DNA of 7,422 bases from a virus (taxonomy: Duplodnaviria > Heunggongvirae > Uroviricota > Caudoviricetes), in the IMG/VR virus record IMGVR_UViG_2778261179_000004; one strand, written 5' to 3'. Shown in pieces: positions 100 to 6,570 of the stretch. Under the pieces are notes generated by a model that was not told the DNA's origin, ran no database searches, and saw only the letters and a list, made by a program, of their open reading frames with translations. Positions within the stretch are counted from its first letter, which is position 1, and every line of letters begins with the position of its first letter. Position numbers and translations under genes: made by a program.

Positions 100-699
100 T
101 CAGAATTTATAACCGACACCCACGATGAAACCGTCAGTGCGCCAGTCGCCACTGCCGGAGCCTTCATAAGCAATATCAATGGCCACGGATTCGGTCGGGT
201 TAAACTGCACGCCAGCTCCCCACGCCAGAGACGTGTTGCTGTGGCGACCGTCATCACTTCCGGTCAGCACGTCGTGCGTTTTCCCCTTATTGTCAGTTAC
301 GCGGAGATAATCCCCGGAGAAAGTCGACACACGGCTGTAAGCCACACCCGCCATCGCATACGCGCTGAACCATTCATTCACGCGCACAGACGGCCCCGCC
401 ATTACGCTGAACCAGCGGTTACGAACGGAATCTTCATGCCAGCGGGTATCGCTGTAACGGGTAAGCTGGCGATTCTTGTCTCCTGCATAGCTGAAAGACG
501 TCACCATCCCCAGTGTGTCCGTAAACTCATAACGGTATTTCACGTTAATCCCGTTCAGATCATCGCTGCCGGGAACGTTCGTCGAGACATGAAGATACCC
601 CGCGCTCAGCGTGGACTGATGTTCAGACGCCCATGCAGGCGCACCGGATACGGCCAGACAAATGGCTGCGGACAAAATGGCGGCATAAAGTTTACGCAT
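100..699 (-). CDS. lom: Lom, Ail/Lom/PagC-family outer-membrane beta-barrel protein (lysogenic-conversion type)
   Basis: 199-aa ORF. N-terminal signal peptide [24 protein letters not shown] with an AxA cleavage site before SEHQ; C-terminal aromatic residue (GYKF) typical of OMP beta-barrels; conserved Ail/Lom blocks ([32 protein letters not shown]). GAGAGG Shine-Dalgarno (+ strand 705-710) 5 nt upstream of the ATG. Sits directly after J as in lambda. Confidence 0.92.
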
Positions 700-765: not shown

Positions 766-4167
<3,402 letters not shown>

Positions 4168-4224: not shown

Positions 4225-4896
4225 TCAGCGACCAATCACCACAACCTGACCACCGTCCCCTTCGTCTGCCGTGCTGATCTCCTGAGAAACCACACGTGAC
4301 CCCACGCGCATTTCACCGTACAGAACGGGCAGAACATTGCCCTGGGCAACCATGTTATCCAGTGAGGAGAAATAGGTGTTCTGTTTGCCGTTATCCGTTG
4401 TCTGTGTACGGGGAGTTCTGGCTTTCGGTGCCAGCATCTGCGCCACACCACCGAGCACCATACTGGCACCGAGAGAAAACAGGATGCCGGTCATACCACC
4501 GGCCCCAATGGCTGCCCCCCACGCTGCAAGGGTGGCTCCGGCGGTAAAGAATGATCCGGCAATGGCGGCAGCCCCCAGGACAATCTGGAATACGCCACCT
4601 GACTTGGCCCCGGCGACTCTGGGAACAATATGAATCACAGCGCCATCAGGCAGAGTCTCATGTAACTGCGCCGTTAACCCGGACGTGCTGACGTCCCGCC
4701 CGGCAATCCGTACCTGATACCAGCCGTCGCTCAGTTTCTGACGAAACGCCGGGAGCTGTGTGGCCAGTGCCCGGATGGCTTCAGCCCCCGTTTTCACACG
4801 AAGGTCGATGCGGCGGCCAAATCGTTGTAAATCCCCGTAAAGGCAGATGCGTGCCATGCCCGGTGACGCCAGAGGGAGTGTGTGCGTCGCTGCCAT
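4225..4896 (-). CDS. I: tail assembly protein I (ubiquitin-like N-terminal domain, Gly-rich hydrophobic C-terminal region)
   Basis: 223-aa ORF. Sequence MAATHTLPLASPGMARICLYGDLQRFGRRIDLRV... is recognisable as lambda gpI. Overlaps the 3' end of K by 103 nt, as I recall for lambda. AGAGG element about 11 nt upstream of the ATG. Confidence 0.93.
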   Translation of the reverse strand: MAATHTLPLASPGMARICLYGDLQRFGRRIDLRVKTGAEAIRALATQLPAFRQKLSDGWYQVRIAGRDVSTSGLTAQLHETLPDGAVIHIVPRVAGAKSGGVFQIVLGAAAIAGSFFTAGATLAAWGAAIGAGGMTGILFSLGASMVLGGVAQMLAPKARTPRTQTTDNGKQNTYFSSLDNMVAQGNVLPVLYGEMRVGSRVVSQEISTADEGDGGQVVVIGR

Positions 4897-5537
4897 TTGT
4901 CGGTATACCTCTCTCGTTTGCTCAGTTGTTCAGGAATATGGTGCAGCAGCTCGCCATCACCACAGTAAATGGCGGCATGATTCGGCACCGATGAACCAAA
5001 ACAGCACAGCAGCACATCGCCCGGTTGTGCTGATGACAACGGCACCTGATACAGCCCTGTGGCCTCCAGATTATCCAGATAGAGATTCTGACCGTGACGC
5101 CACCAGTCATCCTCGCGATGAAAATCCGGCATCTCAATCCCCGCCAGATGATAAGCATCCCGGAACAGCGTGTAACAGTCCGTCACCCCGTGCTCAAAGC
5201 GCCGCCCGGTGAGATGCGGCACACAGCGGAACTTATGAATCGTCCCCCGGCAGACCAGCCACCACGGCAAATCACTCTGCACCTGCAGCCGCCGGTCGGC
5301 CTCACTCAGCCAGGGCAGACCACCGGGGTGGCTGTGGACCAGCGCCACAATCTCACCCTGCATTTCTGCCTGCAGCCAGTCTTCCGGCGACATACGGAAA
5401 TACGCCTCCGGCTCACCGGAGATATTCACGCAGGGAAAATATCTTTCCCCCTCCGGCGTGCTTACCACGAAGCCGCACGACTCCGCTGGCGCACATCGCC
5501 GGGCGTGCGCCAGAATCGCTGATTCTGTCTGTGTCAT
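4794..5537 (-). CDS. K: tail tip assembly protein K (JAB/MPN metalloprotease-like domain plus NlpC/P60 (C40) peptidase-like domain)
   Basis: 247-aa ORF from the first in-frame ATG, 5 nt after the L stop. Contains JAMM signature H68-x-H70-x7-S78-x2-D81 (HSHPGGLPWLSEAD) with a candidate upstream Glu (E19), and NlpC/P60-like Cys121 (TDCYTLF) and His187 (PNHAAIY). The alternative start is Met49 (ATG at 5391-5393), preceded by GGAGG 11 nt upstream, giving the 199-aa form that I recall as the classical lambda annotation. The 5' boundary is therefore uncertain; the 3' end is firm. Confidence 0.85.
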   Translation of the reverse strand: MTQTESAILAHARRCAPAESCGFVVSTPEGERYFPCVNISGEPEAYFRMSPEDWLQAEMQGEIVALVHSHPGGLPWLSEADRRLQVQSDLPWWLVCRGTIHKFRCVPHLTGRRFEHGVTDCYTLFRDAYHLAGIEMPDFHREDDWWRHGQNLYLDNLEATGLYQVPLSSAQPGDVLLCCFGSSVPNHAAIYCGDGELLHHIPEQLSKRERYTDKWQRRTHSLWRHRAWHASAFTGIYNDLAAASTFV

Positions 5538-5542
5538 GGGAT

Positions 5543-6241
5543 TTACTGCGAAAGTTTGTTAATGGAAAGGAAGCTGCCAAAGTTGCCGACATTATTGCGA
5601 AACTTACAGCCACTCAGGCATTTGCTGCATTTATCCTTCGTGATATCGGACGTCGGCTGGTCATATTCATCCGCGACTGCCGGACCGTGATAACCGCACT
5701 CATCACCGCGATAGGTCCAGGTGCAGGTGTTGGCCAGCATGATACGTCCCGGAAAAACAGCGCCATCCGTTTCCGTCGGTGTGGACAACACAAAGGAGGC
5801 ACTCACCGCACTCAGTTCGCTGCACTGCTCGATGCGCCAGCGGCTGATCACCTCCTGCTCCGGATCGGCGTCGCTGTTTCCGTTGACGAAGTTCACCGCA
5901 TCCAGAAAACGGGAGTAAACCTTACGCCGGACCACCGTTCCGCCGACCAGACTCTGCAGATCTTCCGCCATCCCGGTGACCATACCGTACAGGTTAGAAA
6001 CCGTCAGCGTGGGGCGCGTACTGGTGCCTTTGCCATTCAGTTCAAAACCACTCCCCTGAATGGGATACGGCTGATACTGTCGCCCCTGCCAGGTGACCGG
6101 CTCACCTTTTTCGTTCAGCTCATTACAGAAAAAATAACGTTCTCCACCGACCTCTGTCAGGTCGATTTCCCAGAGCACCACGCTGGCCGACTGCTCCGCA
6201 CGGGTGCATTCATTCAGTGTTTCCTGCCGGATATCCTGCAT
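5543..6241 (-). CDS. L: minor tail protein L (tail tip complex)
   Basis: 232-aa ORF. MQDIRQETLNECTRAEQSASVVLWEIDLTEVGGERYFFC... is recognisable as lambda gpL, including the C-terminal Cys-rich segment (CSKCLSGCKF). Its ATG overlaps the M stop codon (minus strand TGATG). GGTGG Shine-Dalgarno-like element about 7 nt upstream. Confidence 0.95.
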   Translation of the reverse strand: MQDIRQETLNECTRAEQSASVVLWEIDLTEVGGERYFFCNELNEKGEPVTWQGRQYQPYPIQGSGFELNGKGTSTRPTLTVSNLYGMVTGMAEDLQSLVGGTVVRRKVYSRFLDAVNFVNGNSDADPEQEVISRWRIEQCSELSAVSASFVLSTPTETDGAVFPGRIMLANTCTWTYRGDECGYHGPAVADEYDQPTSDITKDKCSKCLSGCKFRNNVGNFGSFLSINKLSQ

Positions 6242-6570
6242 CAGTTCACCACCTGTTCAAACTCTGCGCTGAACTCAACACGCAGCATACTGACCCGCGA
6301 CGACCATTTTGCGCAGGTCACCTTTATCTGCCGCCACTCATAAGGCGGCGTCCACAGAAAGGCTTTCCAGCCCCCGTGCTCTTCCAGAAACGACTCCAGT
6401 ACCGTGGCCTCCTCACGGGGGACAGAAAGCGTCACGCTGTACGTTTTCAGGTTGGCATTCAGCCCGGCAGGCGCTCGCTGGGAATAGCCATCACCAAAGC
6501 GCACCTTTCTTACAGAAGGGGCCGAAGCCACATCCATACCGGGTTTCACTTTCCAGCGGAAGGTTTTCAT
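6241..6570 (-). CDS. M: minor tail protein M (tail tip complex)
   Basis: 109-aa ORF. MKTFRWKVKPGMDVAS...RVEFSAEFEQVVN is recognisable as lambda gpM. Its ATG overlaps the H stop codon (minus strand ATGA). GGAGG (+ strand 6577-6581) 6 nt upstream. Confidence 0.95.
   Translation of the reverse strand: MKTFRWKVKPGMDVASAPSVRKVRFGDGYSQRAPAGLNANLKTYSVTLSVPREEATVLESFLEEHGGWKAFLWTPPYEWRQIKVTCAKWSSRVSMLRVEFSAEFEQVVN

Follow-up and report, generated by a model that had tools for sequence, protein, structure and literature searches.

Gene organisation of the analysed region

The DNA analysed here (the window, 7,422 nucleotides in full) covers the tail-tip genes of a phage or prophage resembling lambda. 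Its genes are read on the minus strand, and the open reading frame list of the window gives their order as the 3' end of H, followed by M, L, K, I, J and lom. The genes other than H are as follows.

6241-6570, minus strand: M (open reading frame list)
5543-6241, minus strand: gene L, tail tip protein, to which translation of K is proposed to be coupled (open reading frame list, lambda annotation)
4794-5537, minus strand: gene K, 247 codons and stop, with a 28.3 kDa product (open reading frame list, Pfam)
4225-4896, minus strand: gene I, ubiquitin-like tail assembly protein, proposed substrate of K (open reading frame list, Pfam Lambda_tail_I)
766-4164, minus strand: J (open reading frame list)
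100-699, minus strand: lom (open reading frame list)

The genes are tightly packed, with the 3' end of K overlapped by gene I over 103 nt, and overlaps in the H/M and M/L pairs too. The K region has 97-99% nucleotide identity to many lambdoid phages, and approximately 97% identity to lambda itself. K lies between the L homologue and the ubiquitin-like gene I, upstream of J, which is the placement of the lambda K family (TAPK). The exact K protein of the window was found on 37 public contigs, labelled as a phage tail protein or as a C40 family peptidase.

Candidate translation starts of K

Two in-frame ATG codons compete as the start of K in the window, with the following features around them.

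5535-5537, minus strand: upstream ATG, proposed true start of K; ATG in 45/45 distinct haplotypes
5538-5545, minus strand: L-K junction, consisting of the L stop TAA (5545-5543) and a 5-nt spacer ATCCC (5542-5538), without a Shine-Dalgarno sequence
5391-5393, minus strand: Met49 ATG, start of the classical 199-residue form (lambda annotation)
5409-5405, minus strand: Shine-Dalgarno-like GGAGG ahead of Met49, lying across the codons Pro43-Glu44-Ala45

The original prediction held that 48 codons are open ahead of Met49, and we recovered K as one frame of 247 codons at 4794-5537 on the minus strand. Its assignment of the better Shine-Dalgarno sequence to Met49 was borne out, as the GGAGG lies 11 nt upstream and pairs with the 16S rRNA tail at -9.5 kcal/mol with a spacing of 10. 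The upstream ATG, 5 nt beyond the L stop, was correctly described as having no Shine-Dalgarno sequence, the calculated duplex with the 16S rRNA tail being +0.7 kcal/mol, i.e. none. The 199-residue form is indeed the classical annotation, with both J02459 and NC_001416 beginning K at the equivalent of Met49. The idea of two alternative starts applies to the window, where both are in frame, but not to the lambda reference, in which one G is missing and the two are out of frame.

An open stretch of this length carries little information of its own. By chance, 48-codon stretches are open in approximately 14% of cases in shuffled sequence, and in 34% of cases in the real window. The open 48 codons are thus unremarkable by themselves, and the case for the long form rests on homology. 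Two GTG codons, 24 and 37, were additionally weighed as possible starts of K and rejected, as both drop Glu19 and neither has a Shine-Dalgarno sequence better than that of Met49.

The JAB/JAMM domain and residues 1-48

The N-terminal part of K contains a predicted metalloprotease domain, with the following features.

5226-5531, minus strand: JAB/JAMM (MPN+) metalloprotease domain, residues 3-104 (Pfam PF14464, PDB matches, Foldseek)
5481-5483, minus strand: Glu19 codon GAG, predicted catalytic Glu of the JAMM motif within P-x-E-x-C-G, in the long form only
5295-5336, minus strand: H68-S-H70-x7-S78-x2-D81, predicted zinc-binding half of the JAMM motif (motif, homologues), with the codons of H68 at 5336-5334, H70 at 5330-5328, S78 at 5306-5304 and D81 at 5297-5295

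A check of the codons placed E19, H68, H70, S78 and D81 exactly where they had been predicted, giving the full motif E-x(n)-H-x-H-x7-S-x2-D in K. Glu19 falls within residues 1-48, in agreement with the earlier claim that the motif is complete in the long form only. The proposed check against a domain model gave a similar answer, the Prok-JAB profile (PF14464) requiring residues 1-48: the 247-residue protein scores 52.3 bits over profile positions 3-112 of 114, whereas the 199-residue form scores 23.3 bits over positions 63-112 only and fails the Pfam cut-off (gathering threshold) of 25 bits. Residues 1-48 in isolation match profile positions 3-41 with an E value of 5.8e-5.

Comparisons with solved structures delimit the domain similarly. 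The JAB protein 2KKS aligns with K residues 7-105, and a profile built from K homologues also finds 2KCQ and Pyrococcus JAMM1 (PfJAMM1, 5LDA/5LD9), with the solved JAB domains 2KKS, 2KCQ and 5LDA aligning from approximately K residue 3-7 on. Within the P-x-E-x-C-G of K, E19 is aligned to the motif Glu of 2KKS (EaCG) and of PfJAMM1. An AlphaFold2 model of K, built from 96 sequences (pLDDT 97.1, pTM 0.91), places a helix at residues 3-15 and strands at 21-27 and 30-36, all within residues 1-48. Foldseek searches of the PDB with the first domain returned PfJAMM1 (in complex with the ubiquitin-like substrate SAMP2), CSN5, Rpn11 and AMSH; the match of K to PfJAMM1 (5LDA) has a TM score of 0.67 (normalised to the target) and an rmsd of 2.7 over 110 columns. 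Residues 1-48 would therefore supply helix 1, strands 1 and 2 and the catalytic Glu, so that a protein begun at Met49 would, judging by sequence and model, have a broken and inactive JAB domain.

K thus has its motif and its predicted fold in common with the prokaryotic JAMM/JAB proteins (PF14464; PfJAMM1, 5LDA, and DSY2949, 2KKS) and with Rpn11, CSN5 and AMSH. Like these deubiquitinase-like enzymes, K has a ubiquitin-like partner, in its case gpI, encoded next door. Unlike them, K fuses a second (cysteine) peptidase to the JAB domain and serves virion assembly, and its zinc binding is a prediction from sequence. We found no experimental study of gpK activity (zinc binding, peptidase activity, substrate, or gpK as a JAMM enzyme) in the literature searched.

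Conservation of residues 1-48 and of Met49

HMMER identified 2,786 relatives of K among 1.84 billion representative proteins. Those that are full-length, at 31-59% identity, align from approximately residue 4-10 of K and from their own residue 3-15 or so. The original prediction had asked whether the first 48 residues are conserved across homologues, and in an alignment of 95 K relatives they are: E19 is present in 93/95, C21 in 88, G22 and N38 in all 95, and F47 in 91. This is similar to the zinc-binding half of the motif, with H68 and D81 in 95/95, H70 in 94 and S78 in 87 (with a further seven having Thr). At residue 49, by contrast, Met occurs in only 11 of the same 95 sequences, with Ile in 61, Leu in 13 and Val in six. 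All 95 relatives have a start at or before residue 19, and their N-termini, which are gene-caller predictions, match the upstream ATG to within a few residues.

Substitution patterns at the nucleotide level were examined by Nei-Gojobori counts in relatives of 89% down to 44% identity, the loci of 97-99% identity having too few substitutions. For codons 2-48, pS/pN was 0.37/0.03 against E. albertii, 0.54/0.24 against Citrobacter and 0.93/0.39 against Xanthomonas, and codons 50-105 have a similar synonymous excess. These counts indicate that purifying selection acts on codons 2-48 as it does on the remainder of the domain.

Conservation of the upstream ATG itself, the other part of this check, was equally clear. 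In a census of alleles from loci found with the K protein, mostly 97-99% identical, the upstream ATG was kept in 45/45 distinct ungapped lambda-like haplotypes, and none of these had a stop in the first 110 codons. The ATG of Met49 and the GGAGG were likewise present in 45/45 close lambda-like haplotypes. In other close relatives codon 49 differs, reading CTG (Leu) in a prophage of E. ruysiae and ATC (Ile) in one of E. albertii.

A stop or frameshift within the first 48 codons of homologues had been named as evidence that would count against the long form. We did find upstream frameshifts at three loci in E. coli and Shigella (L053, L054 and L056), in which the frame from M1 closes after approximately 35-113 codons. 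Full-length K is no longer encoded at these loci, the frames being broken overall, and we read them as decayed prophage genes rather than as a refutation; the long form stands.

One base missing from the lambda reference

The difference between the two annotations of K goes back to a single position.

5403, minus strand: G at the third position of codon 45 (GCG), missing in the lambda reference, where it would follow 14266 (alignment)

In the alignment the window reads GAGCCGGAGGCGTATTTCCGTATG, and the lambda reference reads GAGCCGGAGGC-TATTTCCGTATG, the hyphen marking the missing G; the form of the site without the extra G is GGAGGCTAT. In the reference, the upstream ATG (14133) lies 143 nt before the annotated K start (14276), and the absence of one G after 14266 puts the two out of frame, so that the upstream ATG opens an ORF of 76 codons only. 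Because of this frame break Met49 was the first start on offer, and the annotators made no choice between in-frame ATG codons.

We searched for this base in other lambda sequences. Twelve contigs match lambda without a mismatch across as much as 3,373 nt and differ from it only by the G after 14266; they come from unrelated genome assemblies, into whose sequencing libraries lambda DNA had evidently been carried over. With a 100-nt probe, the G was missing in only 4/37 phage records of at least 99% identity (J02459, NC_001416, OR474059 and OR974322) and present in the remaining 33, among which are resequenced lambda isolates, lambda hybrids, DE3 and HK629/630. Sequences with the G include LC730321, PV340536, KT232076, the lambda imm434 and imm21 hybrids and DE3. 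The coordinates of OR474059 and OR974322 are identical to those of the reference, and we suspect that both records are reference-derived. The probe additionally matched 4,040 of 5,426 complete E. coli genomes, and every top-ranked match has the G; no perfect match to the reference allele was found among these top-ranked matches.

These comparisons indicate that the absence of the G from the 1982 lambda reference is almost certainly not real. It is conceivable that the missing base was instead a genuine frameshift in the lambda stock sequenced in 1982, comparable to the stf frameshift known in laboratory lambda (cited in PMC10721106), and OR474059 and OR974322 also lack the G; we consider this unlikely. 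K is needed for tail assembly (PMC12617516), and a frameshift here would split the JAB domain. The G is present in 12/12 contigs that have zero mismatches to the reference across approximately 3.4 kb, as it is in resequenced lambda, the imm434 and imm21 hybrids and DE3, and the exact reference coordinates of the two concurring records suggest a reference-guided origin. The G/C-rich run GGAGGCG moreover forms a hairpin, a context that would be prone to gel compression. The 199-residue K is thus an annotation artefact of one G missing in the 1982 lambda reference, and this annotation was later carried over into several newer phage records even where the G is in the sequence.

The sequence notes of a commercial supplier for lambda cI857 ind1 Sam7 reportedly give 14266 as the site of an inserted G and 138 as that of a deleted G. 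The coordinates of OM418626 (L ending at 14126, K still at 14276) are consistent with this.

Translation initiation and the number of K products

The surroundings of the two ATG codons are folded to very different degrees. Around the upstream ATG, a 63-nt stretch has a folding energy of only -7.2 kcal/mol, 97.7% of same-strand windows being more structured, and in this fold the ATG and everything 5' of it are unpaired. The 63 nt around Met49 fold at -25.8 kcal/mol and are among the approximately 5% most structured windows. The GGAGG is itself part of the following feature.

5405-5422, minus strand: hairpin of 7 bp, pairing 5422-5416 with 5411-5405, with the GGAGG in its 3' arm; MFE -10.6 kcal/mol in isolation

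The distance from the L stop to the K start is -4, -1, 4, 5, 10 or 11 nt at 19/21 loci of relatives, the exceptions being a Xanthomonas prophage with 63 nt and one locus that was unscored. In enterobacterial homologues of approximately 49% identity L and K overlap as ATGA or TGATG, and in closer lambdoids they are 4-11 nt apart. The window has a 5-nt gap and no Shine-Dalgarno sequence of its own for K (+0.7 kcal/mol), as in coupled gene pairs. K thus resembles coupled phage morphogenesis genes with ATGA or TGATG junctions, being likewise without a Shine-Dalgarno sequence, no more than 5 nt from the L stop, and with a conserved junction. The junction, the start without a Shine-Dalgarno sequence and the open structure fit translational coupling of K to L. 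Most likely, ribosomes that finish L would re-initiate at the K ATG 5 nt further on, and the unusually unstructured initiation region may aid this re-initiation.

Taking the domain, conservation and coupling evidence together, we are confident, as far as sequences and models allow, that K is a JAB + NlpC/P60 protein of 247 residues that starts at the ATG 5537-5535, and that the 199-residue form is an annotation artefact. Met49 is then most likely merely an internal Met codon. The GGAGG ahead of it is also accounted for by the coding of Pro43-Glu44-Ala45.

Two other accounts of the K product have to be weighed against this. K might give two products, the 247-residue protein and, by internal initiation at Met49 from the GGAGG, a 23-kDa isoform with the NlpC/P60 domain only that acts in tail-tip assembly. 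K-family versions with NlpC/P60 only are reported from some phages (PMC1779556), the pairing of the GGAGG is strong (-9.5 kcal/mol at a spacing of 10-11 nt), and both it and ATG49 persist in all 45 close lambda-like haplotypes. The GGAGG is, however, explained by the codons that it spans, and it is sequestered in the hairpin of -10.6 kcal/mol, within a region among the 5% most structured windows, although ribosomes arriving from upstream would melt this hairpin transiently. The spacing of 10-11 nt is also longer than optimal for a Shine-Dalgarno sequence. Close relatives have CTG (E. ruysiae) or ATC (E. albertii) in place of the Met49 codon, and just 11/95 distant ones have Met there, so that an internal start is not a conserved feature of the K family. 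We therefore regard a second product as distinctly unlikely. A narrower version, confined to lambda and its closest relatives, in which a hairpin-gated ATG49/GGAGG start would set a ratio of 28-kDa to 23-kDa protein that tunes tail-tip assembly, is in our view highly improbable.

The remaining account is that the classical annotation is right, K having 199 residues (or being otherwise truncated, e.g. the 211-residue form from GTG37 in KT232076) and the 48 codons being an untranslated leader. The reference lambda records and TIPK_LAMBD have this form, Met49 has the better Shine-Dalgarno sequence, and 48 codons are open by chance in approximately 14% of shuffled windows. Residues 1-48 nevertheless correspond by homology to the first third of a JAB domain and include a nearly invariant Glu; pS is far above pN in codons 2-48; most distant homologues have a residue other than Met at position 49, and their genes begin beside the L stop; and all independent lambda sequences that we examined contradict the frame break of the reference. 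The classical reading is barely credible, and as far as sequences can tell it appears already contradicted by the conservation data.

The NlpC/P60 domain and the proposed role of K

The C-terminal part of K contains a second predicted peptidase.

4866-5207, minus strand: NlpC/P60 (C40) cysteine-peptidase domain, residues 111-224, with C121, H187 and H199 (Pfam PF00877)

The NLPC_P60 profile (PF00877) matches K with 49.3 bits over positions 1-105 of 105, against a Pfam cut-off of 23 bits, and this domain is kept in the 199-residue form too. The predicted catalytic set is almost invariant among the 95 homologues (C121 and H187 in 94 each, H199 in 93). Foldseek matches of the second domain include MepS/Spr, LytE, Acd33800 and C. 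difficile autolysins. E. coli MepS/Spr and B. subtilis LytE have Pfam PF00877, the Cys121/His187/His199 set and structural matches in common with K. Unlike these two enzymes, gpK was not detected in the virion (PMC10721106) and has no cell-wall-binding domain in the Pfam scan. Peptidoglycan is a less likely target of the NlpC/P60 domain of K than a phage protein.

A 2003 list of proteins with a JAMM motif included lambda K (PMC300881), and the K family (TAPK; Iyer, Burroughs & Aravind 2006) was described as a fusion of JAB and NlpC/P60 domains, proposed to process the ubiquitin-like TAPI (gpI) (PMC1779556). K of the window and lambda TAPK are one and the same gene: both lie between L and I/J and have the same two-peptidase architecture. 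We identified no biological difference between them; the frame in the window has 247 codons, and the lambda record and TIPK_LAMBD have the last 199 residues.

In this setting, K would be a non-structural tail-tip assembly factor, with an N-terminal JAB/JAMM zinc metalloprotease (E19, H68, H70, S78 and D81) and a C-terminal NlpC/P60 peptidase (C121, H187 and H199), both as predicted. Tail assembly requires gpK (PMC12617516), which mass spectrometry did not detect in virions, and gpI was resolved in the tail tip only at residues 135-223 (PMC10721106). Following this literature, the JAB domain of K probably processes the ubiquitin-like N-terminal domain of gpI. That residues 135-223 are the only part of gpI seen in the virion is consistent with removal of its N-terminal domain, and is no proof of it.

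Database records and consequences of the truncated annotation

The two forms of K coexist in public databases. The UniProt entry TIPK_LAMBD has 199 residues, and at least 1,000 contigs encode the exact 247-residue lambda protein, labelled for instance 'C40 family peptidase' or 'Predicted metal-dependent protease of the PAD1/JAB1 superfamily'. Within a large protein collection, clusters of 247 residues have both Pfam domains, and clusters of 199 residues have NLPC_P60 only. Records that carry the G differ in how K was called: it has 247 residues in PV340536 (lambda, 2025), LR595861, OM475428 and phage 21, 199 residues in DE3, HK630 and lambda imm434, and 211 residues (from GTG37) in KT232076.

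We found no explicit statement of a correction of the K start or of the missing base in the literature searched, and the site goes unmentioned in the main text of two papers, one about the MutaMouse lambda transgene and one about single-virus genomics. The lambda adhesion device was analysed in 2020 with the 199 residues, and that study accordingly reported the peptidase domain only and missed the JAB domain (PMC7291167). The JAB + NlpC/P60 architecture (2006, PMC1779556) and the 247-residue call, made by most pipelines, are already known, and the window adds no new biology, its K gene being intact and typical of the lambda K family.

The value of the present result is as a correction for curators, in that GenBank J02459 and RefSeq NC_001416, the lambda references in widest use, and UniProt TIPK_LAMBD all carry K without its first 48 residues, and work built on the 199-residue entry inherits the truncation error. 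Expression, modelling or mutagenesis of gpK directed at the putative processing of gpI should use the 247-residue form. The tryptic peptides CAPAESCGFVVSTPEGER and YFPCVNISGEPEAYFR arise only from the translated long frame, and YFPCVNISGEPEAYFR spans the disputed G.

Records with and without the G

Besides the lambda reference (J02459/NC_001416), the sole records that lack the G at window position 5403 were OR974322 (locus L148, 'Escherichia phage Lambda isolate P6/2022/SA', obtained from chicken cloacal swabs) and OR474059. The coordinates of both match those of the reference exactly, and both appear to have been assembled with guidance from the reference or derived from it, and not to have been determined independently.

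We additionally identified records that contain the G, which restores the 247-codon K frame, yet in which K is given as the 199-aa form: L147 (OM418626, lambda imm434), L142 (DE3) and L144 (HK630). In one of these, an explicit ribosome-binding-site feature was placed at the GGAGG. The error of the reference has been propagated to these records by annotation transfer.

Lambda DNA in unrelated assemblies

Lambda DNA that matches the reference exactly or almost exactly was present as contigs of low coverage in assemblies whose labels name unrelated organisms (Neobacillus, Pseudoxanthomonas, Chromatium, Shewanella, Bradyrhizobium, Streptomyces-group and others). These matches from the contig search comprised the loci L004-L019, L025, L026, L029, L030, L034, L036, L039, L040, L043, L055 and L057-L059. 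Some of the contigs were about 48.4-48.5 kb in length, which is the size of the whole lambda genome. All of this lambda DNA almost certainly stems from contamination in the laboratory or from a spike-in, and not from prophages.

Frameshifted K homologues

Homologues of K that carry several frameshifts together with premature stop codons were identified in two strains, in each case around locus position 1501:

L053 and L054, Escherichia coli ECMA0423
L056, Shigella flexneri SFBU1023

In these loci the frame continues for approximately 35-113 codons from M1 and then closes, and we read all three as decaying cryptic prophages.

Organisation of the neighbouring tail genes

The tail genes neighbouring K are likewise tightly packed, with a 4-nt overlap between the H stop and the M start (window 6567-6570), and a single base, 6241, common to M and L. 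This arrangement fits a model in which translation would be coupled along the whole H-M-L-K block.

The start of gene I, which encodes the ubiquitin-like tail assembly protein, also differs between records:

4225-4896, minus strand, classical form of 223 aa, with a 103-nt overlap with K
GTG 4797-4799, minus strand, alternative start in several newer records, giving 190 aa, with the GTG overlapping the K stop

The Pfam Lambda_tail_I profile (positions 2-83 of 83) aligned to residues 14-97 of the 223-aa form, in which Met1 and Met14 are candidate starts. Profile positions 1-25 are absent from the 190-aa form, so that its ubiquitin-like domain is truncated.
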